From Candidatus Thorarchaeota archaeon (lineage in GTDB: Archaea > Asgardarchaeota > Thorarchaeia > Thorarchaeales > Thorarchaeaceae): a DNA stretch of 13,992 nt. The position numbers and the translations under genes were made by a program. The notes under the pieces were generated by a model. That model made no database searches. It was not told where the DNA came from and worked only from the letters and a program-made list of their open reading frames with translations. The stretch spans positions 1 to 13,992 of the forward strand of contig JBHLRQ010000082.1 of the NCBI GenBank assembly GCA_048882385.1, given 5' to 3'. Shown in pieces: positions 807 through 13,960 of the stretch (position 1 is its first letter; each line of letters begins with the position of its first letter).

Positions 807-1787
807 TCATCCATATAGATGACAGGCAACTAGTCTATCATTACCCATGTCTATGAGTTCTGGTTCCTCAATTGGACATCTATCAAATGCTTTTGGACAT
901 CTAGGATTGAAGCGGCATCCTGGTGGTGGATTGATTGGACTTGGAATTTCCCCTCTAGGCACAGCCTCATTCTTTTCGATTCTTGGATTTGGCACAGGAA
1001 TTGCACTCATCAATCCTTTCGAGTATGGATGTAACGGGTCTTCGTACAAGCTATCCTTGTCACCCACCTCAACGATTCTTCCAAGATACATTATAGCTAT
1101 TCTGTCACACACATGTCGAGCCGTAGCTAAATCGTGACTGATGAATAGGTAAGTTAGATTGAGTTCCTTCTTCAAGTCTGTCATAAGATCGAGGATTTGG
1201 GCCTTTATTGAAACATCAACCATTGCAACAGGTTCATCAGTTACTACAAACTCTGGTTCAAGTACTATCGCTCTGCCAAAGACAACACGTTGTCGTTGCC
1301 CACCACTTAACTGGTGTGGTAGTCTATTATAGAATGAGCTTGCTGGAGAAAGACCAACACGTTCCAAAGTTTCAATTGCACGTTCTTTCCTTTCATCCTT
1401 TGTGCCCATTCTCTGGAATCTCAAAGCATCAGCAATTGCGTCTCCAACCGTGAGTCTGGGATTCAGTGATGATGTGGGATCTTGAAATGTGAATTGTATC
1501 TTTCTTCGTAAGAAACGCAGATTGCTTCCCTTTGCTTTTGCAATATCTTTTCCGTCGTAGATGATTTTTCCTTCAGTAGGCTTTAACAATCGAACACAGA
1601 GCCTACCGGTTGTGGTTTTTCCTGAACCGCTCTCTCCAGCAAGTCCTAATACTTCTCCTTTTCTTATTTCAAATGAAACATCATCGACAGCTCTGACGAA
1701 GGTTTGCTCTTTCGATATTAGCGATTCCACAAATCCCTTTTGAACTGGGAAGTATTTTTTGACATTCTTGAATTCCATCAACGCCAT
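807..1787 (-). CDS. oppF: Oligopeptide/dipeptide ABC transporter ATP-binding subunit (OppF/DppF)
   Basis: Walker A GESGSGKTT, Q-loop FQDP, signature LSGGQRQR, Walker B VVTDEP, H-loop SHD, HPY motif and C-terminal Cys cluster (GCRFNPRC...C...VACH). Last gene of the operon. Confidence 0.93.
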   Translation of the reverse strand: MALMEFKNVKKYFPVQKGFVESLISKEQTFVRAVDDVSFEIRKGEVLGLAGESGSGKTTTGRLCVRLLKPTEGKIIYDGKDIAKAKGSNLRFLRRKIQFTFQDPTSSLNPRLTVGDAIADALRFQRMGTKDERKERAIETLERVGLSPASSFYNRLPHQLSGGQRQRVVFGRAIVLEPEFVVTDEPVAMVDVSIKAQILDLMTDLKKELNLTYLFISHDLATARHVCDRIAIMYLGRIVEVGDKDSLYEDPLHPYSKGLMSAIPVPNPRIEKNEAVPRGEIPSPINPPPGCRFNPRCPKAFDRCPIEEPELIDMGNDRLVACHLYG

Positions 1788-1790
1788 GAC

Positions 1791-2816
1791 TCATTCCTCC
1801 GGATAAAGGTGACATGCAACCAGTCTATTTTTCTTAACCTCAATTAGTGGAGGTACTTTTGATTTGCAGACATCCATTGCATGTGGGCATCTTGGATTAT
1901 ACATGCAACCCGGAATTGGATCAACAAGGTCTGGGGGAGCTCCGGGAATCCACGACAGTTTCTTTTCTGGTTTTGAAGCATCAGGAACTGACTGAAGAAG
2001 TGCTTGAGCATATGGATGCAATGAATCCTCAAACAAATCAATTGTAGGCGATAATTCCATTATTCTTCCTGTGTACATGATTGCGATAGTGTCAGCAGTT
2101 TGAGCAAGAACCCCGAGATTGTGAGTGATTAGAATCATGGTAAGGTCAAAGACATCTTTTAACTCTGCAATCTCTTCTAATATCTGAGCTTCAACTATGA
2201 CGTCGAGGGAAGTTGTAGGTTCGTCTGCTATCAAAAGTTTAGGTCTGAGAGCTAGACCAAGACCAATCATGACTCGTTGTCTCATTCCTCCACTAAATTG
2301 ATGCGGGTAGTCTTTGATTCTTTCTGGCAATATTCCCAGACCGTCGAGAATCTCCTCTGCTCTCTCCAAAGCCGCTTCATCTTCGATCTCAGGGTTGTGA
2401 GCCTTCATTATCTCAATGAAATGAGTGCCAATTGTAATCATAGGATTGAGTGAGGTCATTGGATCTTGGAAAATGTAAGCTATCTCTTCTCCTCTGATAG
2501 CTCGCATCTCATCTTCTGAAAGGTCCATAATGTTTACTAATCCCTTTTCAACAACTCCTTTCTTGTATGGGATGTCCTCTTTAAGATCGAAGATCATCTC
2601 ACCATTCGTAATCTTTCCTGGATATGGTACAAGTTTCATTATTGCTCTACCTAGAGTGGTCTTACCGCATCCACTCTCTCCAGCTAGACCAAGAGTTTTG
2701 TTTTCAACAAGTTTCAATGAGACATTATCAACAGCCCGGGCTAAACCTCGACGTGTTTTGTATTCAACAGTAAGCTGATTGATGTCTAGTAATGTGGGAT
2801 TATCAAACTCAACCAA
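1791..2816 (-). CDS. oppD: Oligopeptide/dipeptide ABC transporter ATP-binding subunit (OppD/DppD)
   Basis: GESGCGKTT, FQDPMTSLNP, FSGGMRQR, LIADEPTT, THN, HPY and Cys cluster. Start reassigned to TTG at 2816, which follows GGAGTGA just after the oppC stop; the ORF-track start at 2930 lies inside oppC. Confidence 0.92.
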   Translation of the reverse strand: MVEFDNPTLLDINQLTVEYKTRRGLARAVDNVSLKLVENKTLGLAGESGCGKTTLGRAIMKLVPYPGKITNGEMIFDLKEDIPYKKGVVEKGLVNIMDLSEDEMRAIRGEEIAYIFQDPMTSLNPMITIGTHFIEIMKAHNPEIEDEAALERAEEILDGLGILPERIKDYPHQFSGGMRQRVMIGLGLALRPKLLIADEPTTSLDVIVEAQILEEIAELKDVFDLTMILITHNLGVLAQTADTIAIMYTGRIMELSPTIDLFEDSLHPYAQALLQSVPDASKPEKKLSWIPGAPPDLVDPIPGCMYNPRCPHAMDVCKSKVPPLIEVKKNRLVACHLYPEE

Positions 2817-2821
2817 TTGTA

Positions 2822-4093
2822 TCACTCCTTCAATTTTGGTGTTAATATCTCGTTGAGTCCTTCTCCAGCTAAAGTAAAGCCCAAAGCAAGGATTACAATC
2901 ATTAAACCTGGAAAAGTGATGCTCCACCATTTTCCAGCCACATATTCATGGGAACCCCATGTCAAATCCCATCCCCAGTCAGGAACATCTACAGGCAATC
3001 CGAGTCCGACAAATGTCAGTCCTGCTGCGGTTAGTATAGCATCAGCGAAGTTGATAGACATCACTACAATTGAGGACGCAAGGATATTGGGCAAAATGTA
3101 CCTTAGAAGTATCTCTCTATTTCGTGCTCCCATAACTACTGCTGCTTCAACGTAGGGTAGCTCCTTTACAGTCAAGACCTGGCTTCGGACCACCCTAAAA
3201 TAGGATGGAATATATACAACTCCAATTGCCAACGCCATGTTTATGACACCAGGTCCAAGCATTGCTGCAATTGCTATTGCTAGAACAAGTCCTGGAAATG
3301 CGAAAATACTGTCCATTACAAGAGAAACAATTCTATCTACAGCTCCACCTTTATAGGATGCGGCCAGACCTAAAGGCACTCCAATTGAGAAGCAAATCAA
3401 TACTGATAGCATCGCAACTTGAAGCATTATACCTCCGCCAGCTATCACCCTACTGAGAAGATCTTGTCCTATTGAAGTAGTTCCCAAAGGAAACTCAGAG
3501 GACGGTGGTGCACCATAGGGACCCACATCAAGTCTTGATGGGTCATAAGGCACAATCCACCATGATAATGCAGTCATATAGACTACTGAGAAGACTATCA
3601 ATAAGCCTCCCATGGAAATGAATCCTGGTGAGCCTCTGTCGCTTAATCTCGGATAGCCCTCGTATAGTAGGAGTATAATTAGAGAGAGAGATATGCTCCC
3701 TATTGGAAGTGTTGAAGCAAGACTGGAATCGGTTATTTCTGATGGTTGATATATAGACCCTAGTAAGAATGTAAGAGCCACCATCGCCCCAGCAACAATG
3801 ATGAAAACTATGTTCGCTCGTTTTTGGGTCATAGTCATTTGCTCGATAAGTGTACGACGAAATACCGCTGTTAGGAATAAGACGAACCCAAAGAGGAAGG
3901 TGTAACCTATCACAGGTAGACCAATCCCAGAGAATGCTCCTATTCCAAAGAGTATGAGTCCCATCAACATCAAAATAGTACATCCAAGTATTATAATGAA
4001 GGCGCCCCACCACTTTCGCGATTTTTCACTGAACGTATCTCTTGGTGGTTTCAAACGCATGAATACACCGCTCACCAGACTTTTCTGAGTCAT
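2822..4093 (-). CDS. oppC: Peptide ABC transporter permease (OppC/DppC) with N-terminal multi-TM extension
   Basis: PPS..FPLGT..GQDLLSRV motif, EAA loop (YVEAAVVMGA...ILPN), PDWG, WW..FPG; SD AGGAGG upstream of the ATG. Confidence 0.92.
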   Translation of the reverse strand: MTQKSLVSGVFMRLKPPRDTFSEKSRKWWGAFIIILGCTILMLMGLILFGIGAFSGIGLPVIGYTFLFGFVLFLTAVFRRTLIEQMTMTQKRANIVFIIVAGAMVALTFLLGSIYQPSEITDSSLASTLPIGSISLSLIILLLYEGYPRLSDRGSPGFISMGGLLIVFSVVYMTALSWWIVPYDPSRLDVGPYGAPPSSEFPLGTTSIGQDLLSRVIAGGGIMLQVAMLSVLICFSIGVPLGLAASYKGGAVDRIVSLVMDSIFAFPGLVLAIAIAAMLGPGVINMALAIGVVYIPSYFRVVRSQVLTVKELPYVEAAVVMGARNREILLRYILPNILASSIVVMSINFADAILTAAGLTFVGLGLPVDVPDWGWDLTWGSHEYVAGKWWSITFPGLMIVILALGFTLAGEGLNEILTPKLKE

Positions 4094-4104
4094 TTCAATT
4101 CCTC

Positions 4105-5115
4105 CTACAGACGAATTCGGGGGTCTAAATATGCGTAGAGAATGTCCACGATCAACGTTACAAAACTAACAAGGACACCGAAGAAAACTACGACTCCTTG
4201 TATCGCTGTATAGTCCCGATGGTTGATTCTTTGAACAAGGTATGTCCCAAGACCTGGCCAGCTAAACGTTGTTTCAGTGAGAACAGCTCCAGCAAGGAGA
4301 GCTGCAAACTGCAGACCAATCATTGTTAGAATAGGAAGGAATGCATTTTTGAGAGCATATGTGTAGGTGATCTTACTTTCAGAGAGTCCTCTGGCTTCTG
4401 CAGCTACAACAAAATCCATTCTAAGAGTTTCCAACATGTTGGTTCTTGTCAGTCGTATGAATATGCCACATAGGACGGTACCTAAGGTAATTGAAGGTAA
4501 GAGCAGGTACCGGAAAGCTACCACGAACGCTGTTATGTTTCCAGTTAAGAGACTGTCTATCGTATACAGCCCTGTGATTGTTGGTGGCGAATCAATTCGA
4601 GGATCAAATCGTGTGCCAGTGGGAAGGACCCCCAACCAAATTGAGAAAATGAACTGGAGTATCATTCCCAAGAAAAATACTGGAATTGCATATGTAACAA
4701 TCCCAAAAAATCTGATTCCATGATCCTGAGCACTGTCATAACGCTTTGAGGATTTTACTCCAAGTGCAACACCAAGTAGAACTGCAAATAGCATCGAGTA
4801 TAGTGTTAGCTCAAGTGTTGCAGGAAACCTTACCCAGATGTGGCCGCTGATTGAGGAATAATCCTGCATCGATAAACCTAGATCGAGTGTTAAGAGACCA
4901 AATAGATAATTGAAATACTGAACATGGGGTGGTAAATCTAATCCAAGTATATGTCGAAATTCTGCTAGCACTTCAGGATCAACATTCTTTTCAAAATGAA
5001 GTAATGCTGGATCCCCTGGTATTACTCTTATAATTAGAAAAACAAGTGTGAGAAGAAGCATTATCATGGGGATTGTTAGAAGGACCCGGCTAACGATATA
5101 CGTCCTTAATGTCAT
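4105..5115 (-). CDS. oppB: Peptide ABC transporter permease (OppB/DppB)
   Basis: PGDPA, LGLD.P..VQY, FPATLEL, ARGL EAA-like loop, ET.FSWPGLG, RDY..IQG. The ATG at 5115 is preceded by AGGTG. Confidence 0.93.
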   Translation of the reverse strand: MTLRTYIVSRVLLTIPMIMLLLTLVFLIIRVIPGDPALLHFEKNVDPEVLAEFRHILGLDLPPHVQYFNYLFGLLTLDLGLSMQDYSSISGHIWVRFPATLELTLYSMLFAVLLGVALGVKSSKRYDSAQDHGIRFFGIVTYAIPVFFLGMILQFIFSIWLGVLPTGTRFDPRIDSPPTITGLYTIDSLLTGNITAFVVAFRYLLLPSITLGTVLCGIFIRLTRTNMLETLRMDFVVAAEARGLSESKITYTYALKNAFLPILTMIGLQFAALLAGAVLTETTFSWPGLGTYLVQRINHRDYTAIQGVVVFFGVLVSFVTLIVDILYAYLDPRIRL

Positions 5116-5246
5116 TAGTAACACCTACAATTGAATTCAGTGGAATATCAAAATTCTACCATTTCATTGTATCTTAAAGCCTTCGACCCAAGTAAATATA
5201 AAATCTGAAAAACCAGTTAGTTGTTTCCGAATAAAAAATGAGAGAT

Positions 5247-5268
5247 AGGCAGGTTGGATAACCTGCCT
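5247..5268 (-). terminator. Stem-loop followed by T-tract downstream of oppA (partial terminator or mRNA stabiliser)
   Basis: Perfect 9-bp inverted repeat AGGCAGGTT-GGAT-AACCTGCCT, 13 nt after the oppA stop, followed on the minus strand by ATCTCTCATTTTTTATT. Confidence 0.6.
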
Positions 5269-5281
5269 GTTATCAGATAAA

Positions 5282-6925
5282 CTAAGTTGTGGGCGCCTCG
5301 ATATACACTAACCAGTGACGCCAATTGACTGTAATATCTAGCACGACACCCTTGACATCAAGTTTTGTAACAGCTACGGTATTACTCTGCCATATCGGGA
5401 CAACTGAACATTCTTGTGCCTGCAATTCTTGCAGGTCCGTGTATGCCCATCCTCTGGCAGTGTCATTCTCAGCACTTCGCCCTTCATTCCACAGAGCGTA
5501 CTGATCAATTCCACCTTGTGGATAGGAGCTATTGTAGCCAAGGTTCAGCCATGATGCGAATGGTAGAAACTCATAGTTGTCGGGATCGATGAAGTCAGGA
5601 TACCATCCATAGATGAATACATCCATCGTTCCTTCGTTTCGTCGTGTTCTATATGTTGGCCAATCAATACCCGTGAGAGTGACTTCAATCACATTACTGT
5701 CTTCCCAGTCTTGCTGGTAAACAAGTGCTTGTTGTTGACTCGATGGATAGTGACCAGAACTCTCATAGTATAGATGCAACTGAAGCGGGTGCGTCTCATT
5801 AAAGCCAAATGGCGCTAATAGCTCCCTTGTCTTCGTATAATTAGCATCGCCCCAGATATCGAATGTATCTGTATGATATGCCATTCCGATGGGTATCATG
5901 CTATAGAGTTCATCAAAGTAACCTTTGAACACCGAATCCACAACATGTGTTCTGTTGATACCAGCTGTGATTCCCTGTCGTACTGCTGTTTCATTGTATG
6001 GGTAAATATCCTGCTGGAAACAGAGATATTGAATCTGGGCTCCAATACCCTCCCATACCTCGACATTCGTATTCTCCTTGAACGCGTCAATTTGGTCTGC
6101 AGTCAACTGTCTGTAAGCAACATCAATCTCACCAGCTGTCATGGCTGCAGCTAGTGTCTGGTCGCTCGAATACATCTTGATGATGATTCGTTCTGTCTTT
6201 GGATAACCAGCAGCAGCATTCCAGTAGTCTGGATTCTTAATCAGTGTGATGTGATCATCACTTCCACCAATTCTGACCCATTCTTGAAGTATGTATGGGC
6301 CAAGTGCAGCTGGAGTCTGTGGTGTTGATGTAAAGTTGACAAGCTCGTTCATTGGCGCAATTGCCCTGTCCACCATATATGATGCTGCACATGACATTAG
6401 CTGCAAGAATGGTGCAAATGCTATCTTCAGATAGAATCTTACCACAAATTCACTAATGATAGTGACATTTTCGATGATTGCATCATATTCCATGTTCAAC
6501 TGCGGTCCGTCGAGTTCGAAAAGACCTTCTCCGGTGAGGTTGCAGTTTCTGTCAAATGTATACTTGACATCTGTTGCATTAAACTCTCTGCCATCAGGGA
6601 ACAATACATTTTGTCTCAGAGTGAAGTCCCATATGGTACCTCCTCCGCTCACGTCCCAACTAGTCGCCAACGCAGGTAGTATATCATCAGCCCCTGCTTC
6701 GGAACCAGGATCAATCTCAACTAAGCCTGAGCTCAGTGCTATAATTGTATTCCATCCGAAGTAGTCGTATGACTGAGCCATGTCCAAGCTCGATTCCACA
6801 GAATCTGTAGTACCCACAACAATTGTAGGAACACCAGGTCCCGGTGGAAAGAGCACAATATAGGCTCCAACAGAACCGACGATAACTAGGATGACGACTA
6901 TTGCAATAGTCTGATTTCGTTCCAT
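5282..6925 (-). CDS. oppA: ABC transporter substrate-binding protein, family 5 (OppA/DppA-like), N-terminally membrane anchored
   Basis: N-terminal hydrophobic anchor; family 5 motifs P.LATSW..S...WDFTLR..V.F.DG..FNA.DVKYTF, GPY, NPDYW, VRQ.I..GINR, W.PD..DPD; SD GGAGG. Confidence 0.92.
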   Translation of the reverse strand: MERNQTIAIVVILVIVGSVGAYIVLFPPGPGVPTIVVGTTDSVESSLDMAQSYDYFGWNTIIALSSGLVEIDPGSEAGADDILPALATSWDVSGGGTIWDFTLRQNVLFPDGREFNATDVKYTFDRNCNLTGEGLFELDGPQLNMEYDAIIENVTIISEFVVRFYLKIAFAPFLQLMSCAASYMVDRAIAPMNELVNFTSTPQTPAALGPYILQEWVRIGGSDDHITLIKNPDYWNAAAGYPKTERIIIKMYSSDQTLAAAMTAGEIDVAYRQLTADQIDAFKENTNVEVWEGIGAQIQYLCFQQDIYPYNETAVRQGITAGINRTHVVDSVFKGYFDELYSMIPIGMAYHTDTFDIWGDANYTKTRELLAPFGFNETHPLQLHLYYESSGHYPSSQQQALVYQQDWEDSNVIEVTLTGIDWPTYRTRRNEGTMDVFIYGWYPDFIDPDNYEFLPFASWLNLGYNSSYPQGGIDQYALWNEGRSAENDTARGWAYTDLQELQAQECSVVPIWQSNTVAVTKLDVKGVVLDITVNWRHWLVYIEAPTT

Positions 6926-7087: not shown

Positions 7088-7966
7088 TTAGAACTGTGAA
7101 AGAGCTCCTTTTCCCCTTACATACCTCTCAGTTCTTCTGAAGAGAACGACTCCCAATATGAGAAAGACCACATCGAGGATGATCAGTGCGATGATTGCAT
7201 TAATCACTCCTGAAAATGCCAATCCTTCCATTAGAAATCCTCTGAATGCTTCAACGCTCCATGTCAATGGTGATGCAACTGAAATATATTGAAGATATAT
7301 CGGAAGAACAGCAATTGGGTAGGACATCGGAGCTACAAGGAATAGTATGCTCGAGAGCATTTCCAGAATCATCCAGCCTTGTTTTGCCAAGATGACAATA
7401 CAGACGACGATTAATACGATACCCTGCATCCCGATGATTGAGAGTGCAACCACCCCGAGAGCTGGTAACACTCCCCAGAGATTGAGACCCACACCAAATA
7501 AGACCACAGAAGCCCCCAGCTGAAGGACAACTCCTAATCCTCCATGTTGGATGTTATGAAGAGTTGATCCCCAGATGAATGTGTTCTTACTCATTGGGGT
7601 GGTCATGATGGTTTCAAGGGTTCCAGCATTCTGTTCTCTGCGAAGAGTAAAACCACTACCCCAGATGAGGCTTATTGCTAGACCTGCATATGCACTACCA
7701 ATAGCGATATAGCTGATCCAGTCTCCAGAACCTACCATCCCCTCAAGAGCAGAAGATTCCGCGTTTCCAGTAACTGCTGTACCTGTCAATAACATGGGTA
7801 TGAACCACAGGAACGGCATGACAACGAACCACAGAATGCTCAGAGGATAACTGAGCTCAACCTGCCACTGTTTTATTGCCAATGCGTTTGCAGCTCTAAG
7901 TTCAGCTCGCCATCCTTTTCTCTCCCACATTCTCTTGAAAATGGGTGATACTGATTCTTCTGGCAT
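7088..7966 (-). CDS. ABC-2 type exporter permease
   Basis: About six hydrophobic segments, RREQNAGTLETIMTTP, YPIAVLP, SPLTW.VEAFR; abuts the upstream permease stop. Confidence 0.9.
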   Translation of the reverse strand: MPEESVSPIFKRMWERKGWRAELRAANALAIKQWQVELSYPLSILWFVVMPFLWFIPMLLTGTAVTGNAESSALEGMVGSGDWISYIAIGSAYAGLAISLIWGSGFTLRREQNAGTLETIMTTPMSKNTFIWGSTLHNIQHGGLGVVLQLGASVVLFGVGLNLWGVLPALGVVALSIIGMQGIVLIVVCIVILAKQGWMILEMLSSILFLVAPMSYPIAVLPIYLQYISVASPLTWSVEAFRGFLMEGLAFSGVINAIIALIILDVVFLILGVVLFRRTERYVRGKGALSQF

Positions 7967-8863
7967 TTAGAAGTCCCCCATGTGACCGCGGCTCTTGGTC
8001 CATTTCTCTGCGTATTTGAAAGATCCAAGTCCAAGTGTCCAGAAGAACACCCCAAGAACTGAAAGTCCAAAGAGGACTTGAGCAAAGGACAAGAGATCGA
8101 ACACTCCAGTGATTGCTAGCTCTCTTACTGTGATGATGCCTATTGTTGTTGGAATCAGATAGGCGAAGAACCTAATGCTTGAAGGTAGGGTCTGTATTGG
8201 ATACTGCACTGGAGATACAACATAGGTGGCATTGGATACTAGTTCAGTTAGAACTGATGGGTCCTTGAATACCAGAATCAGTCCAGCAACCATGAAGCTG
8301 AATCCATACAAAGCAATGACCATTACAATCATGATGATGATTGTTGGTAGAATTGCAATGAGCGAGTACGACACCCCAAACATGACCATCGATATGGCCA
8401 GAAGGACCAATGACTGGATTATGCATAGTGCAGTATCTGAGAATGCAGCACCCAAGAGGATACTGATACGTGGAACTGGAGTTGAGAACAAAGGCTCGAG
8501 AGTACCACTGAACTGCTCCCATCGGAAATTGTTACCAATGGCCCATATGCTATTGTCTAGGAACATGTACACAAACCAACCAATCACTGAGAATTGGATA
8601 TAATCTGAGAACCCAGATAGCTCTGTAAAGTATACATTTTCAGGTCCTGCAATTGCATTTACCATCAGTATAAACGGAGCAAACCAAAGGATTGGCATAA
8701 ACGCCCAAATAACCCAGTTAGAGGGATATCGCATAGCAATCCTAAGATTCTTCATAGCAAAGATTCTTGCAGCAGACCAGTCCATCATACGAGGCTTAAA
8801 GTCTGCCATGTAAATGCTCTCGATACGAGGCTTCTCATCCTTTTCCTGAACGGAGACTGTCAA
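7967..8863 (-). CDS. ABC-2 type exporter permease
   Basis: About six hydrophobic segments, RWEQFSGTLEPLFSTP, YPIQTLP, IPTT...VR; the TTG start overlaps the ATPase stop (TTGA). Confidence 0.9.
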   Translation of the reverse strand: MTVSVQEKDEKPRIESIYMADFKPRMMDWSAARIFAMKNLRIAMRYPSNWVIWAFMPILWFAPFILMVNAIAGPENVYFTELSGFSDYIQFSVIGWFVYMFLDNSIWAIGNNFRWEQFSGTLEPLFSTPVPRISILLGAAFSDTALCIIQSLVLLAISMVMFGVSYSLIAILPTIIIMIVMVIALYGFSFMVAGLILVFKDPSVLTELVSNATYVVSPVQYPIQTLPSSIRFFAYLIPTTIGIITVRELAITGVFDLLSFAQVLFGLSVLGVFFWTLGLGSFKYAEKWTKSRGHMGDF

Positions 8864-9852
8864 TCCTCAATCCTCCTTCCAGTCAACTGCAAGAATACGT
8901 CATCGAGAGTTGGTTCTTTCACTTCGAAGTGTTCGACCTTTACTCCACTGGTCGAACGCATGTAGTCGAGGAGAGTGTGTGCCATCTCATAGCCATTCTG
9001 TGCTGTCACAACTAGGTCGGAATGACCATTCCTTGTGTTCATGGTTGCAGACATGACATGCTCCATTTTCTTGATGAAATCGATGTCTGGAACACCAAGA
9101 ATCTTCATGTGAAGACTGTCATAGTCCCTGACTCCTTCCTTCAAATCATGTGGAGTCCCGAAACTCTTAATCTCTCCCTCGTTGATGAGTGCAATCTTAT
9201 CACAGAGCATGTCGGCTTCGTGCATGTAGTGTGTTGTCAGCAGAATGGTCTTGTCACGGAGCTTCTCCCGGATGTACTTTCTTAGATCTGATGCAAATGT
9301 TGGATCCAATCCTTGCGTTGGCTCATCGAAAAGTAATACCGGAGGGTCGTGAATGAGTGAACGTGCGAACACGATCTTCATCCGCATACCATGCGAAAGG
9401 TTCTCGGCCTTCTCGTCAGCCTTCTCAGTGAGTCCCATCCGCCCAAGTAGCTCATCTGCTCTTTCCTTTGCTTCGCTAGTGGGCATCCTGTATAGCTTCG
9501 CAAAGAAGATGATGTTCTCCCTGGCACTCAGCTTCCAGTAGATGCTTCTCTCATTTCCCTGACATACGCCCATCGATGCTCTTGCGTATGTGGATTCCTT
9601 TAGTACATCATATCCATTTACTCTGGCTGATCCAGAGGTCGGAAGAACAAGGGTTGCGAGGCATTTGATCAGAGTCGTTTTCCCGGCACCGTTGGGTCCA
9701 AGTAAGCCATAGATCTGACCCTTCGGTATGTCCAGTGAAACCGACTTGAGAGCCTCAACCTTCTTCTTCTCAGTAGGAATGATGATAGCCTTCCTCTTTA
9801 CACTGATGAAGGTCTTTGATAGGTTCTCTATTTCTACAGCGTTACTTGTCAA
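8860..9852 (-). CDS. ABC-2 type exporter ATP-binding protein (DrrA/CcmA-like multidrug family)
   Basis: GLLGPNGAGKTT, LSHGMR signature, LLFDEPTQGLDP, LLTTHYMHEAD, C-terminal EPTLDDVFL.LTG. TTG start with GGGAGGT SD. Confidence 0.92.
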   Translation of the reverse strand: MTSNAVEIENLSKTFISVKRKAIIIPTEKKKVEALKSVSLDIPKGQIYGLLGPNGAGKTTLIKCLATLVLPTSGSARVNGYDVLKESTYARASMGVCQGNERSIYWKLSARENIIFFAKLYRMPTSEAKERADELLGRMGLTEKADEKAENLSHGMRMKIVFARSLIHDPPVLLFDEPTQGLDPTFASDLRKYIREKLRDKTILLTTHYMHEADMLCDKIALINEGEIKSFGTPHDLKEGVRDYDSLHMKILGVPDIDFIKKMEHVMSATMNTRNGHSDLVVTAQNGYEMAHTLLDYMRSTSGVKVEHFEVKEPTLDDVFLQLTGRRIED

Positions 9853-9995
9853 CGTTTAGTACCTCCCCAAACCGGGTTAGTATGTCGGTGTTCATTTAGC
9901 CCATAATGTCACTCAGGTCTTACAGAACCCGAGTGAGAAAGAATCGCACGGGGGTTCATTCCCGTTGTTTTGCTGTGAGCATTCGAAACACCTAT
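9853..9995 (-). promoter_or_regulatory. Structured 5' leader (candidate attenuator/RNA switch) of the ABC-2 operon
   Basis: 10-bp stem TCACTCGGGT/ACCTGAGTGA (9909-9936), a CGGG/CCCG hairpin over the uORF stop, and the SD in the loop of GTTTGG/CTAAAC; all conserved in the second copy. Confidence 0.55.
9956..9982 (-). CDS. Putative 8-aa leader peptide MLTAKQRE
   Basis: ATG CTC ACA GCA AAA CAA CGG GAA TGA, with GGTG 6 nt upstream; same length, SD, start and stop in copy 2. Confidence 0.5.
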   Translation of the reverse strand: MLTAKQRE

Positions 9996-10012
9996 CTTGG
10001 GGCGGTATACTC

Positions 10013-10031
10013 TTTGTATATGAATTTTTCC
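10013..10031 (-). promoter_or_regulatory. Putative BRE-TATA promoter of leader/ABC-2 operon
   Basis: GGAAAAATTCATATACAAA; the box TTCATATA starts 42 nt upstream of the uORF ATG, the same spacing as in copy 2. Confidence 0.5.
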
Positions 10032-10085
10032 AGTCATGTAGAAATTAGGAGAGGGAATATCTATCTCAACTAATTCATCTAGCAT

Positions 10086-12311
10086 CTACTTCTTCTTGAT
10101 CACAATAACAACAAGCACAATAACTGCTGCCGTAATCAATCCAATAGTACCTACCATTATGAGTGGCCCATAATCGTCTGGAGTTGTTGGCGTTGTTGTT
10201 TCTGTGGGTCCTGTTGTTGGTGTAGTCGCTGTGTCCCACGTAATGGTTATTGACTGGGAGTTCTGATTTACCTCTGTGATTCCAATTGAATTATTGCTGA
10301 CCACGACTGAGTCATATATTACTGTTTGAGCTGTTGTACAAATTTCTGAAAAAATCCAAACTCCATCACTTCCAGTGTATATTGCATTGATTCCATTGAC
10401 AGTCACAGTCCCATCAGTTACGTATGAACCGGTGGCCTCATAGCAAAGCGTTACATAGCATTCTGATGCTTCATTGATATTACATTGAGTGTCATCGGCT
10501 GTGTATCTCTGTACTTGAACACAATCTGAAACATATATGCTGCTTTCAATGAAATGAAGCTGAGAATTTCCCTCAGACCCAGTTCCATTCAAAACCACGC
10601 TTGATGTATAGATGTCAATTCCTGGAATATCATCTGCATCAACAGTCATTGAGAAATATCCTGAATCCAGAGAATCGTCTAACCAAGGACCTGCACCTGA
10701 GTTCAATGAAGCGCTAACCCAAACATCAACTAATCCCGTATTTGGATTGATGCTAGAACCAAGGTATGTTAATGTCCCTGATACTGTTAATGACCCGCCA
10801 ATATTGCCCCAGTTACATGCTCCTATACCATCATCTATAGAGAAACCATGTATGTCTAGTCGTGTTTCATAATCATAGTTGACATAATAGATGTCTTCAT
10901 CGAAATCTCCCAAACTGTCCTGGACATACTGAACTAGAATATCATCCATCGTATCTGGATGTTCCCATTCAATGTAGAGATTAAAAGTAACATTCAGCTG
11001 AGTAGAACTCCTAGAATAATACCCACCAGTGAGGTTGATGAATGATATCCCTGCCTCCTCAGTGAATGTATTAGTGTCTTCATTGAATCTTATGGACCAT
11101 CTCAGCTCTGTCATGGAAGAGTCGTAGGATTCGAGATTAACATATTCAATGTGTGAGCATCCATCATCATCAATTACACTGATGTTGAACTCATACAGTT
11201 TGTGTCTTGCGTAGAGATTATCCACATCATCCAAATTTGTGCAAGCTGGCGCCTGAACATTTTCAGGGGCTGCGTTTGTGAGTCGGATGTACATTCGTCT
11301 GATTTTCCAATAATCCGTGTCATCGTCCCCAATTTGATACTCATCTCTAATGTTCACATAACAGTCTGACCCGACCAAGTATTCATGAATGTCCACATTG
11401 AATGTGCTATTCTGATCATCTCCAATAAGAAAGTCTGGCGTTGTGTCTCCTGATTCAAATCTGAAGTCCAAATACTCGGAACTTGAGTTTGAATCAAATT
11501 CAACGTATAATTTTTCAGATGTGAAATTGTTAAAGTCAACATCTGCAAATTTATAGGTGATATCCAAACCTCTAGCTTCATAATCATCTCCTGCATCGAT
11601 TCTCCAATTCTTACCCCCGACACTTTCCATCAGTCCCTGCACGTATCTAAAACGGACTCTGAAGTTTGAGTGCATGTATTGACTATCTGTTGAACTAAAG
11701 ACATAATCTTGTTCCACCATGTCTCCAGGAATAGTTCCAATCTCGTCCCAATTGGATGTTGAGTCATAGAAATCAATATACACTCCCCCCTGGATGATTG
11801 CAGATATGCACAACACTGTGAATCTCACAATGTCGTATCCACTTGTTGATACATCTGAACAAGTCAAATATCCAGAAGTAGCAGCGAGAGGTTCTGAGCC
11901 GAAGTAACCACCATAACCACCATAAACAATGTTACTATCTTCCCATCCTGATGGCAAGCCTTCAAATGTAGCCTGCGTCATCAGATTTGTCCAAGTTGTT
12001 CCAGCGTAGTAACTCTCTGTCAATTCAGTGGCTGATGCAGAGTCTTCTCCCATACCTAATGGTGGAGCTGATATATTTGTCCCGACGACAAATCCTTGAT
12101 ATGAGTCAACATAGTCGTCACCAGCAGCTGATGTATGGAAAATCCGTTCTCCCTCAATGATTGCTTCTGGTTGATATTTCGAATCTTCTTCTATTTTTAT
12201 GGTGCCACCTTGTCTGCTCATTGTTAATTGAGTTTCTGTTGGAATCATTAAGAGATACAGCATTAACAAGAATAAACTAATCACTACTGTTTTCTTTCTC
12301 CTAGCTTGCAT
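10086..12311 (-). CDS. Secreted, C-terminally membrane-anchored surface glycoprotein of unknown function
   Basis: Basic plus hydrophobic N-terminus (RRKKTVVISLFLLMLYLLMIP), acidic Asp/Ser/Thr/Tyr-rich body, many N-x-S/T sequons, Thr/Pro linker, C-terminal TM and KKK. The ATG at 12311 follows GGGGAG; an alternative GTG is at 12332. Confidence 0.8.
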   Translation of the reverse strand: MQARRKKTVVISLFLLMLYLLMIPTETQLTMSRQGGTIKIEEDSKYQPEAIIEGERIFHTSAAGDDYVDSYQGFVVGTNISAPPLGMGEDSASATELTESYYAGTTWTNLMTQATFEGLPSGWEDSNIVYGGYGGYFGSEPLAATSGYLTCSDVSTSGYDIVRFTVLCISAIIQGGVYIDFYDSTSNWDEIGTIPGDMVEQDYVFSSTDSQYMHSNFRVRFRYVQGLMESVGGKNWRIDAGDDYEARGLDITYKFADVDFNNFTSEKLYVEFDSNSSSEYLDFRFESGDTTPDFLIGDDQNSTFNVDIHEYLVGSDCYVNIRDEYQIGDDDTDYWKIRRMYIRLTNAAPENVQAPACTNLDDVDNLYARHKLYEFNISVIDDDGCSHIEYVNLESYDSSMTELRWSIRFNEDTNTFTEEAGISFINLTGGYYSRSSTQLNVTFNLYIEWEHPDTMDDILVQYVQDSLGDFDEDIYYVNYDYETRLDIHGFSIDDGIGACNWGNIGGSLTVSGTLTYLGSSINPNTGLVDVWVSASLNSGAGPWLDDSLDSGYFSMTVDADDIPGIDIYTSSVVLNGTGSEGNSQLHFIESSIYVSDCVQVQRYTADDTQCNINEASECYVTLCYEATGSYVTDGTVTVNGINAIYTGSDGVWIFSEICTTAQTVIYDSVVVSNNSIGITEVNQNSQSITITWDTATTPTTGPTETTTPTTPDDYGPLIMVGTIGLITAAVIVLVVIVIKKK

Positions 12312-12433
12312 CCTTCTATCTCCCCTGGCCACGCCAGTTATATCCCAATGTAAAAAGATCCTATTAATATTATCTAATTATTTTATCAACTAATGAAATA
12401 GGAATAAAAATGATGCATTGCGTTCCAAAAGCG

Positions 12434-12583
12434 CTATTTGTCTTGAAAAACAAAGCGAGGAGATTTTGAAGAGTAATGAAACAACGCTATGTCGTTCTTT
12501 CTTGTTGGGTTGATGATAGCCTCCCTTATTACACTGATGAAGGTCTTTGATAGGTTCTCAATTTCTGCAGCGTTACTTGTCAA
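12434..12583 (-). pseudogene. Truncated 5' fragment of ABC-2 ATPase (49-aa ORF)
   Basis: MTSNAAEIENLSKTFISVIREAIINPT matches MTSNAVEIENLSKTFISVKRKAIIIPT of 8860-9852, then runs into unrelated sequence and a TAG at 12434-12436. Confidence 0.8.
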
Positions 12584-12682
12584 CGTTTAGTACCTCCCCA
12601 AACCGGGTTAGTATGTCGGTGTTCATATAGCCCATAATGTCACTCAGGTCTTCCTGAACCCGAGTGAGAAAGAATCGCCGGG

Positions 12683-12709
12683 TCACTCCCGTGTAAGTAT
12701 CTTGAGCAT
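12683..12709 (-). CDS. Putative 8-aa leader peptide MLKILTRE
   Basis: ATG CTC AAG ATA CTT ACA CGG GAG TGA, with GGTG 6 nt upstream. Confidence 0.45.
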   Translation of the reverse strand: MLKILTRE

Positions 12710-12739
12710 GCGAAACACCCGCCGCCGAGGGGACAGGTT

Positions 12740-12758
12740 TTAGTAAATGAATATTTCC
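12740..12758 (-). promoter_or_regulatory. Putative BRE-TATA promoter, copy 2
   Basis: GGAAATATTCATTTACTAA, homologous to the copy 1 box and at identical distance from the uORF ATG. Confidence 0.4.
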
Positions 12759-12853
12759 ACTTATTGAGAACTGAGATTCTTGACCAAAAAATGGTGGCAA
12801 ACATTGAATGCTTGTTCCACTGGATTTTTCTTAGTTTGTTATGAACTAGTCAT

Positions 12854-13960
12854 ATGTCGCTGGTTGGAGGTGCTTTGCTCCAGATTGAGAATCTACGGGC
12901 TTATCATAGCTCTAAGGAAGGTCTAGTCAAAGCTGTCAATAATGTGTCCTTTGATATTCGAAGAGGCGAGAGCGTTGGGCTCCTGGGTGAGTCAGGAGCT
13001 GGGAAGAGCTCTATAGCCCTCGCAATTCTTGGTCTGTTCGAACGTCAGTCAAGATACTATGCCACTTCTGCAAAAAATAAGGAGAACCGGTATCTATGGA
13101 GTCTCAGAGATAAGGCAAGAGCAGAAGGTAAGACTTCAGAAGAGATGGGAGTTGAGCTTCCTGGTGTTGAGGGACATATCTGGTTTGATGGAATAGAACT
13201 TGTCAACTTAGACAAGAAGAAGCATCCCTCGATAATTGGGAACAGGATTACTTACATTCCACAGGGAACCTCAAAAGCTCTCAATCCACTTCTCACCATA
13301 GAAGCCCAGGTCTTGGAAAGTCTTTGGATGCAGTTCAGAGAGAAAGTGATAGACGACAAGAAGGCCGCCATGCAGGTTCTAGAAGCATTGGACCTAGTTG
13401 AACTCGGAGATATGGCTACTCGAAGAGAAATGTTTCCAACTGATTTCAGTACAGGTGAGGACCAGCGTGTACTACTTGCCATAGCTCTCATATCTCGACC
13501 TGATTTGATCATCGCAGATGAACCAACGACTGCAATGGATGCTGCATTGCAACATAGAATATTGACTGCTATCAGGCGTGCATGCGAAGACTTGGAACGA
13601 TCCATGCTTATGATTTCTAATGATCCCGGGGTTATCACTGCCACCTGTATCAAGGTTGGAGTCATGTCTTCCGGAATGATGATGGAGTTTGGCAGTGTAA
13701 AACATGTAATGAATGAGCCAGTGCATCCCTTTACACAGGCATTTCTCATGAGCAATCCAACGTTCGAGATGATGAAACAGATACGTCAGAGGGGTGAGAG
13801 GTTACGACCTATCCCTGGGAGACCACCAAGCCTGATTGACCTACCTAGAGGCTGTCCCTTCAACAGTCGTTGCTCAAAAGCTGAAGATATCTGCAAGGAG
13901 AAACGCCCTGAGTACAGAGAGATTGAATCTGGCCATTGGATCTACTGTCATCTGGCTTGA
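12854..13960 (+). CDS. OppD/DppD-like ABC ATP-binding protein with degenerate signature and H-loop
   Basis: GESGAGKSS, IPQGTSKALNP, FSTGEDQR, IIADEPTT, MISND, HPF, C-terminal GCPFNSRC...C...IYCH. Confidence 0.85.
   Translation: MSLVGGALLQIENLRAYHSSKEGLVKAVNNVSFDIRRGESVGLLGESGAGKSSIALAILGLFERQSRYYATSAKNKENRYLWSLRDKARAEGKTSEEMGVELPGVEGHIWFDGIELVNLDKKKHPSIIGNRITYIPQGTSKALNPLLTIEAQVLESLWMQFREKVIDDKKAAMQVLEALDLVELGDMATRREMFPTDFSTGEDQRVLLAIALISRPDLIIADEPTTAMDAALQHRILTAIRRACEDLERSMLMISNDPGVITATCIKVGVMSSGMMMEFGSVKHVMNEPVHPFTQAFLMSNPTFEMMKQIRQRGERLRPIPGRPPSLIDLPRGCPFNSRCSKAEDICKEKRPEYREIESGHWIYCHLA

Follow-up and report, generated by a model that had tools for sequence, protein, structure and literature searches.

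Comparative sequence evidence for a selectively maintained mini-uORF at the predicted 5' end of an ABC exporter leader in Thorarchaeota

Does a reading frame of only eight codons, placed ahead of an archaeal exporter operon, act as a regulatory leader? Cis-regulation by leader open reading frames (ORFs) is textbook material in bacteria, and upstream ORFs (uORFs) are pervasive in eukaryotes. The stretch analysed here, referred to as the window, is a whole contig of 13,992 nt (C82; JBHLRQ010000082.1) from a 3.7 Mb metagenome-assembled genome (MAG; GCA_048882385.1) of Candidatus Thorarchaeota. It carries, all on its minus strand, a DrrA-like ABC-2 exporter operon with its leader (copy A) and a partial duplicate of that leader further upstream (copy B). 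An earlier note on this DNA had proposed that both copies encode a conserved leader peptide through which a ribosome regulates the exporter. Comparison with orthologous leaders indicates that selection maintains the 27-nt frame as a genuine mini-uORF at what is predicted to be the very 5' end of the exporter leader, and that its peptide is not what has been retained.

In copy A, a Shine-Dalgarno (SD)-like GGTG (SD1; 9989..9992) lies 6 nt (TTTCGA) ahead of the ATG at 9982..9980, which is followed by CTC, four further codons, CGG GAA and the TGA at 9958..9956. The uORF (9956..9982) is therefore 27 nt in length, consisting of ATG, seven codons and TGA, and encodes MLTAKQRE*. Copy B (12434..12760) retains the promoter, SD1 (GGTG at 12719..12716), the uORF (12709..12683, with ATG at 12709..12707 and TGA at 12685..12683; MLKILTRE*), the leader, a TTG at 12583 and about 25 ATPase-like codons. 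The Glu codon of the uORF differs between the copies (GAA versus GAG), and directly past the uORF stop copy A is longer by 4 nt. The distance from the uORF stop to the TTG is 103 nt in copy A and 99 nt in copy B. The coordinates, the GGTG-6 nt-ATG arrangement and the eight codons of both copies, the position of the 4-nt net indel and the 103-nt distance of copy A had all been given correctly in the earlier note. The ATPase itself starts with the TTG at 9852, behind a main SD, GGGGAGGU (equivalent to GGGGAGGT), at 9868..9861.

The prevalence of the uORF was investigated in a set of orthologous loci whose ATPases share at least 70% identity in species-representative genomes. Forty such loci and the two window copies made up 42 leaders, no two of them identical across the last 230 nt; three loci without an N-terminus or upstream DNA (L041, L062 and L063) were left out. 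Weak-match loci (38% identity or less in the best segment) were excluded, and 20 of these, L064 and L069 among them, were used as controls. The orthologous loci carried the label Candidatus Thorarchaeota, except for a few under Promethearchaeota or Hermodarchaeota. Exactly one GGTG-N(5-9)-ATG opening an ORF of 5-9 codons was present in 38 of the 42 leaders. A stricter motif, GGTG-N5-8-ATG-(2-10 codons)-stop between positions -200 and -40, was found in 37/42, against 0.51 expected from dinucleotide shuffles (a chance rate of 1.2% per sequence), and in none of the 20 control regions upstream of non-orthologous DrrA-like ATPases. Metagenome contigs provided another 23 loci with an N-terminus, 12 of which duplicated earlier leaders; among the 11 new leaders, eight carried the motif. 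SD, ATG, short frame and stop are thus kept in orthologous leaders, the outcome that the earlier note had anticipated for this comparison.

Within the genus, leader DNA was present in 22/27 other genomes, and BLAST recovered every genus copy. In a curated alignment of 22 genus-level leaders (A1), all copies had the 8-codon frame at the same columns, with ATG as the start codon in 21 and GTG in one, and with TGA (11), TAA (9) or TAG (2) as the stop codon. Several indels were observed in the flanks and none inside the 27-nt frame; frameshifting indels, which the earlier note had named as evidence against its own proposal, were accordingly absent from the 22 copies. When the leaders were placed on an ATPase tree of 38 rows, 36 of which had the uORF, the identity of the stop codon switched at least 13 times among TGA, TAA and TAG, some of these switches falling at non-alignable positions and at least five within alignable genus-type leaders (tree read by eye). 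The length of the uORF changed at least eight times on the same tree. The GGTG-ATG spacer was 5-9 nt among the 38 motif leaders and 5-7 nt in all but two. This spacing agrees with that of the genome's own SD-led starts, for which the mode with GGTG is 6, a value derived from crude gene calls and biased by construction.

Leaders outside the motif still had, when read by eye, a short ORF near the predicted 5' end. These exceptions included a GTG start (L030), an 11-codon uORF (L106), an SD altered by a G-to-T change ahead of an intact uORF (L094) and a 5-codon ORF behind AGGGA, a different SD-like word (L109). In L042, L051 and L072 an ATG is located at about the predicted transcript start, and these may be leaderless uORFs of 18, 27 and 6 codons, respectively. 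The leader of L029 has the same promoter and SD with a 7-codon uORF and a spacer of 217 nt. A scan of the intergenic DNA of the source genome (about 493 kb, both orientations) found the GGTG mini-ORF design 11 times, as against 17-19 times for permuted 4-mers. Further filters for a correctly spaced TATA box and for a long ORF lying 40-250 nt downstream left only the exporter leader and one other site. The mini-uORF element is specific to the exporter operon family and no general habit of the genome. The other site, on the plus strand of contig C46 of the source genome at about position 4274, encodes MLGEHVPKYQ* 60 nt before a long ORF, and it may be a chance occurrence.

The earlier note had regarded ML-x4-RE as a conserved peptide, a view that the wider comparison does not bear out. 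The "ML-x4-RE" peptide was confined to one sub-clade. Among the peptides encoded were ML..R[EDVA] and, in other lineages, MD/MR..NRE, MKTEYLK[GRE], MDTLKRKE, MK.R[ED], MF.R., MSD..Y..L, MSVIYP, MITGEL, MKQIIGIFQ, MRIDIL and MREGQ, with lengths of 5-9 codons. Neither an arrest motif nor a selected peptide was found in the uORFs across lineages, and no amino acid was common to the uORFs compared, leaving no regulatory codons for a sensed amino acid. The synonymous-type conservation suggested by the GAA/GAG change fared no better. Over codons 2-8 of A1 the mean entropies at codon positions 1, 2 and 3 were 0.63, 1.19 and 0.89 bits; the second position was the most variable, which is the opposite of what is expected of a protein under purifying selection. 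Codon 7 was CGG in 21/22 A1 copies and never a synonymous Arg codon, and CGG-GAR-TGA makes up the 5' arm and loop of a predicted hairpin, P2 (CGGG/CCCG). The "RE-stop" motif and the GAA/GAG change are thus best read as reflections of RNA structure and chance. What selection appears to keep in the uORF is the SD, the AUG, the short length and the stop, while the peptide drifts. Two sharply distinct alleles were observed in the genus at uORF codons 3-6 (9961-9976 in the window), CAGCAAAACAA of the TAKQ type and CAATACTTAGA of the TILR type. Their distribution departs from the ATPase tree, which suggests recombination within the leader.

The position of the uORF on the transcript was assessed from the promoter. 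Upstream of copy A we read from the sequence a B recognition element (BRE)-like GGAAAAA and a TATA box, the whole being GGAAAAATTCATATA (10031..10017); the TATA box, TTCATATA (10024..10017), is separated from GGTG by a spacer of 24 nt. In leaders aligned on GGTG, a BRE/TATA-like motif was located by eye in the same columns in the 36 rows shown, in essentially all lineages, examples of the TATA box being TTCATATA, TTTTATAA, GCTTATAT and AATTAATA. The TATA-GGTG gap was mostly 24 nt and fell within 22-26 nt in most of the 36 rows. A scripted choice of the TATA box gave a gap of 20-30 nt in 33/36 rows and in the other three selected another A/T-rich 8-mer with a gap of 39-40 nt. The usual archaeal distance from TATA box to start, which we used to place the start of the transcript, together with the constancy of this gap, puts the predicted transcription start at T9994/A9993/G9992 (9992..9994). 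The transcript would therefore begin at or 1-2 nt before GGTG, with the SD at its extreme 5' end. Expression data consisted of assembled RNA-library contigs, in which starts, ends and strand are unreadable and uncovered parts are uninformative. One such contig of 243 nt (X1), with three differences, spans 9730-9972, taking in the leader together with the uORF's 3' 17 nt; its reach to 9972 lends weak support to a transcription start upstream of 9956 and is compatible with one upstream of 9972.

The predicted leader RNA ties the uORF to the region ahead of the ATPase. The minimum free energy (MFE) of the window leader was -46.2 kcal/mol (z = -2.95 vs shuffles), and the consensus fold of A1 (alifold) contained four helices, P1, P2, P3 and an anti-SD:SD hairpin, with 96.7% of the A1 cells in helices paired and pairs that hardly vary. 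P1, present in both the MFE and the alifold structures (98.1% of cells paired), joins GGUGUUU (9992..9986), which overlaps SD1, to GAACACC (9893..9887), located 35-41 nt ahead of the TTG start, and leaves about 2 unpaired nt at the 5' end. P2 (9965..9948; 97.7% paired, zero covariation) has ACGGG, uORF codons 6-8, as its 5' arm, the uORF stop in its loop and CCCGU as its 3' arm. A U-rich tract, UUCUUUCU (9936..9943), follows between P2 and P3; A1 shows no variation at several of its T positions, and a run of four or more U was seen by eye in about half of the 22 copies. P3, UCUCACUCGGGUU/GACCUGAGUGA (9936..9909), was also obtained by both methods, with 94.9% of cells paired, G-U/G-C exchanges at three pairs and one pair changed on both sides. 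In the anti-SD:SD hairpin (9882..9860), the anti-SD at 9882..9874 pairs with the main SD.

P1 was tested beyond the genus by asking which 14-nt window, past the uORF stop and short of the main SD region, would form the best duplex with the SD..AUG segment. The partner began at -47..-55 from the main start in 10/17 representatives, where chance would give about one in ten, for a 9-nt target zone within a range of 80-120 nt. It was also at -47..-55 in L097, L101, L105, L109 and L110, and was off this zone in L106 and L029. The helix sequences are unrelated between lineages: GGUGUUU/GAACACC, GGUGUUCG/CGAACAUC, GGUGGCUC/GAGCCGCC, GGAUUUCAU/AUGAAAUCU and GGUGU.UCUCAUG/CAUGAGA.ACGCC, the last with a UCUCAUG/CAUGAGA core. 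A P1-like helix, UUAUGUUC/GAACAUAA, was located slightly further downstream in L031 and L033. The junction and the internal stems differ fully between lineages whose ATPases are 70-80% identical.

These features are best accommodated, in our judgement, by a translation-dependent cis-regulatory leader with a peptide-independent mini-uORF, a reading to which we give a probability of roughly 0.5. A ribosome on the uORF and helix P1 would be mutually exclusive, so that the leader would have two states. Under this proposal the act of translation, as defined by SD, AUG, short length and stop, would be the selected trait and the peptide would be irrelevant. The uORF would most likely be translated co-transcriptionally, before the 3' strand of P1 exists, and the dwell time of the ribosome would set the fate of the transcript: either P2 and the U-tract would form, favouring pausing or termination, or P1 would close. 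The output could lie in pausing or termination at the U-tract, in the stability of the mRNA or in access to the TTG start. Both the regulatory role of uORF occupancy and its direction are inferred.

Several observations weigh against this proposal. Both translation of the uORF and the transcription start were deduced from sequence, the RNA support comes from contigs only, and all sequences compared are from MAGs and metagenome contigs. Occlusion of the uORF ribosome-binding site (RBS) was not above that of leaders with a shuffled downstream part (0.31 vs 0.35). When an initiating or terminating ribosome was mimicked in 37 leaders by forcing the uORF region to be unpaired, the unpaired probability of the main SD was 0.22 in either occupied state and 0.25 in the free state. 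The alifold with the uORF blocked added only a 3-bp helix, in which the ACC of the P1 3' strand pairs with GGU from the main SD. Many copies have a weak U-tract, and that of the window is only U3. Covariation in the genus was not significant because the pairs hardly vary; the one pair changed on both sides was equalled in 225/500 shuffles. By lineage, the P1 partner at -47..-55 was counted in 8 of about 16, on a grouping of our own and with no formal test. Overall, P1 appears better supported across lineages than within the genus.

Among the candidate outputs, attenuation by termination at P2 and the U-tract invites comparison with the pyrBI type of leader and with bmrB-bmrCD, an ABC exporter system; both are ribosome-mediated transcription attenuators whose leader ORF extends into a terminator hairpin. 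Similarly, the last codons of the exporter uORF form the 5' arm of P2, a terminator-like hairpin with a U-rich tract behind it, and the operon encodes an ABC exporter. P2 with its T-rich tail agreed with a simple terminator-like definition (2 sites vs 0.2 in shuffles, the second being a plus-strand mirror). Unlike those systems, P2 has a stem of only 4-5 bp, the U-tract is weak and displaced, starting 3-10 nt past the stem, and regulatory codons are absent. A further difference is that archaeal termination, in the parts of the literature cited here, proceeds via U-tracts and aCPSF1/FttA rather than hairpins, with U4 tracts and a Lokiarchaeota orthologue of the factor among the data (PMC8716108; PMC11616081). 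The link between the U-rich tract of the leader and U-tract/aCPSF1 termination would hold by analogy with the cited part of PMC8716108. Attenuation of this type was rated as no more than possible, given the short P2, the displaced U-tract and the presence of four or more U in only about half of the copies. On the plus strand, the reverse complement of P2 (9948-9965) with TGTTTTGCTG is terminator-like as well; this site depends on the TAKQ-type allele, and no plus-strand gene lies upstream of it.

The closest bacterial precedents would suggest an arrest peptide instead: a ribosome would stall on a specific nascent peptide in response to a drug or metabolite, the leader would refold, and the ATPase RBS would be exposed as in ermC and cat. 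Leaders such as those of ermC and cat/cmlA are translation-attenuation leaders of inducible resistance genes, and the peptides of bacterial resistance-gene leaders are likewise poorly conserved, which tempers the lack of a conserved peptide here. The general class is covered by the part of PMC5499644 drawn on here. Like those leaders, the exporter leader has a short SD-led ORF upstream of a resistance-type gene, here encoding a DrrA-like exporter, and a main RBS in a hairpin. The 3' arm of P2 (CCCGAG) can pair with the 5' arm of P3 (CUCGGG) in 14/22 genus copies (by eye), which would create a 1:2/3:4 versus 2:3 topology as in the ermC/cat arrangement, and R or K stands two residues ahead of the stop in many uORF peptides. 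Unlike them, it belongs to an archaeon, has no conserved arrest motif, ends its uORF about 100 nt before the main start and holds the RBS of the uORF itself in a long-range helix, with no predicted relay to the main RBS. The free variation of peptide and length (5-9 codons), the highly variable second codon position and the near-invariance of the CGG at codon 7, as expected of a stem rather than an amino acid, all speak against selection on a nascent chain. In MFE structures with the uORF blocked, no consistent new partner was found for the freed 3' strand of P1, and these in silico models, in which the main SD stays paired, do not support an ermC-like relay between the uORF and the ATPase RBS. 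This tells against an ermC-like form of the ribosome-sensing attenuator that the earlier note had put forward, as constraint folding released no main SD. Nothing found here points to drug sensing or bears on antibiotics, and no evidence of an inducer emerged. An arrest peptide is in our view doubtful.

Alternatively, the RBS, the mini-ORF and P1 could form a constitutive 5' element, similar to the STAB-SD and other 5' stabilisers of Bacillus, which would shield the leader from 5'-to-3' decay or couple the first ribosome to RNA polymerase and would sense nothing. SD1 at the predicted 5' end in essentially all lineages, the approximately 2 nt that P1 leaves unpaired, the irrelevance of the peptide and the failure to find an in silico link to the main RBS would all be in keeping with such a role. 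A start codon, a conserved stop and a short length are, however, not required of a stabiliser, which also leaves unexplained both the position of the stop in P2 and the fixed P1 partner beside the main RBS hairpin. We consider it an unlikely explanation of the leader.

An element acting through RNA only, whether a riboswitch, a protein-binding leader or an RNA thermometer, would consist of a three-way junction closed by P1 and an anti-SD:SD platform, with the ORF being incidental. The layout of the leader, a P1-closed junction followed by an expression platform, is riboswitch-like, and P1, P2, P3 and the platform together make a classic riboswitch architecture; the window leader also folds better than its shuffles, and the 5' arm of P3 with the preceding U-rich tract is invariant in the genus. 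However, an Rfam scan of 9500-13000 at E <= 10 returned five chance-level matches, none in the leader, and neither a known riboswitch family nor an aptamer core conserved across lineages was found, as junctions and stems differ from lineage to lineage while ATG, SD spacing and stop persist. Switches from one stop codon to another with no loss of the stop are unexpected of a mere loop. These data make an RNA-only element rather improbable. A tRNA scan found no tRNAs, and a search of the MAG for the 3' end of 16S rRNA gave a single non-rRNA match.

A more speculative version of translation-dependent control would be a prokaryotic counterpart of the short-ORF-dependent ribosome shunt and reinitiation, in which a subunit is handed from the uORF to the weak TTG start. 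A ribosome would load at the 5'-terminal SD, translate the uORF of 5-9 codons and terminate in the P2 loop; P1 would re-form behind it and bring the ATPase RBS, 35-50 nt past P1, to the terminating small subunit. The peptide of the short ORF is sequence-independent in the shunt, which would match the exporter leader, and the long-range pairing of MS2 is a viral comparator. In plant pararetroviruses, where the short-ORF-dependent shunt is described, the cited part of the source places the 5'-proximal short ORF so that it ends at or near a stable structure, with a long-range helix bringing the pre-start region close to it (PMC2241666); the geometry of the exporter leader is compatible with this arrangement and with a landing site past the stem and ahead of the main ORF. 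Unlike the exporter leader, in which both ORFs are SD-led, the shunt is eukaryotic and depends on cap and scanning; the exporter uORF lies inside P1 rather than before the helix, and evidence of reinitiation was not found. We regard this version as a long shot; if true, an Asgard archaeon would be using a short uORF in a eukaryote-like way.

That the frame is functionless and merely inherited by descent within a conserved leader is barely credible: the sequences are related, so that the counts overstate their independence, but the uORF bodies are unalignable between lineages in which SD, ATG, short length and stop persist, and the low chance rate, the empty controls and the repeated stop-codon switches are not expected of such a relic.

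The duplication in the window is itself informative about the history of the leader. The direct repeat (9764-9947 vs 12495-12678) is 92% identical, BLAST extends it to 12511-12719, and the promoter, the leader and the first approximately 25 ATPase codons are duplicated around a 2.7-kb insert (10086-12760, minus strand) with a 748-aa ORF. Copy B is a relic, as its ATPase-like frame diverges past about 25 codons and stops after 49 codons, ending at 12434. Inside the repeat, divergence is far higher in the uORF interior and the promoter than in the remaining, 92%-identical part, and the uORF of copy B resembles the allele of other species (MLTILTRE type). The arrangement looks less like a simple tandem duplication than like recombination with foreign DNA, such as a single-crossover insertion. 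The 748-aa protein (P0001; 10086-12332, minus strand) had no Pfam or NCBIfam matches; it is hydrophobic over an N-terminal segment, has a linker rich in Thr and Pro, and closes with a C-terminal membrane anchor that ends in KKK. In 21/27 genus genomes, giant ORFs of 3000-6600 aa contain its C-terminal module of about 100 aa (residues ~600-700) many times over, and P0001 appears to be a member of a variable surface-protein family. No orthologue of it was found beside the ABC leader in other genomes. A second, independent duplication of the leader was observed in genome G024 (L026 1-1563, on the same contig as L010), where a decaying promoter, uORF (MFILLILE*), P2 and P3 lie about 1.1 kb upstream of the intact leader, with two paralogous small membrane-protein ORFs of 90 and 141 aa on the opposite strand in between. 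The leader may therefore be a recurrent insertion site.

The operon downstream of the leader starts with the ABC ATPase gene (8860..9852; 330 aa), whose product matched Pfam ABC_tran (3.1e-31) and DrrA1-3_C (1.8e-8); its best NCBIfam model was TIGR01188 drrA, at 284 bits, where the curated cut-off is 312. Behind it come two genes for ABC-2 permeases (8863..7967 and 7966..7088), with Pfam ABC2_membrane matches of 7.6e-11 and 9.7e-10 and weak matches to the drrB model (49 and 42 bits vs a cut-off of 223). These domain matches identify the operon as one for a DrrA-like ABC-2 exporter and lend support to the archaeal ABC-2 exporter named in the earlier note. The ATPase orthologues mostly start with TTG behind a strong GGAGGT, ATG or GTG being used by a few; CTG stands first in the alignment for the L039 group, where an ATG two codons upstream is the probable real start. 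TTG accounts for about 30% of the crude SD-led start calls in the source genome. Downstream of the exporter, a complete Opp/Dpp-type peptide ABC importer (807-6925, minus strand) comprises an SBP_bac_5 binding protein, two BPD_transp_1 permeases and two oligo_HPY ATPases, and a further oligo_HPY ATPase is located at 12854-13960 on the plus strand, divergent from copy B.

A dissected archaeal leader-ORF regulator was not found in full-text searches on archaeal leader peptides, attenuation, uORFs and ribosome profiling, on ribosome stalling, leader ORFs and ABC transporters in archaea, and on Asgard SD or leaderless mRNAs, a scope outside which lie supplementary tables that may list archaeal uORFs; the earlier note had likewise known of no characterised archaeal leader-ORF attenuator. 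A tool paper names archaea among the domains with uORFs, and ribosome profiling has reported uORFs within 5' untranslated regions in Haloferax volcanii (PMC7261190) and Methanosarcina mazei (PMC11456600). In the cited portions of these two papers the uORFs are catalogue entries with neither mechanism nor comparative anatomy. The exporter uORF is set apart from them by its conservation across an uncultured Asgard class and by the structure of its leader.

In Thorarchaeota, which are close relatives of eukaryotes, the comparative data define a putative regulatory leader with a uORF and point to translation-dependent leader control of a kind not yet studied in archaea. The element has a clear anatomy, with its promoter, its SD at the predicted 5' terminus, its mini-ORF, its long-range helix and the sequestration of its main RBS, and at about 145 nt it is compact enough to be moved to a tractable archaeon or an in vitro system. 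It thereby makes testable whether archaeal ribosomes serve as sensors on leader ORFs, in what way transcription-translation coupling or aCPSF1/FttA termination is exploited, and whether the logic of the short uORF predates eukaryotes.

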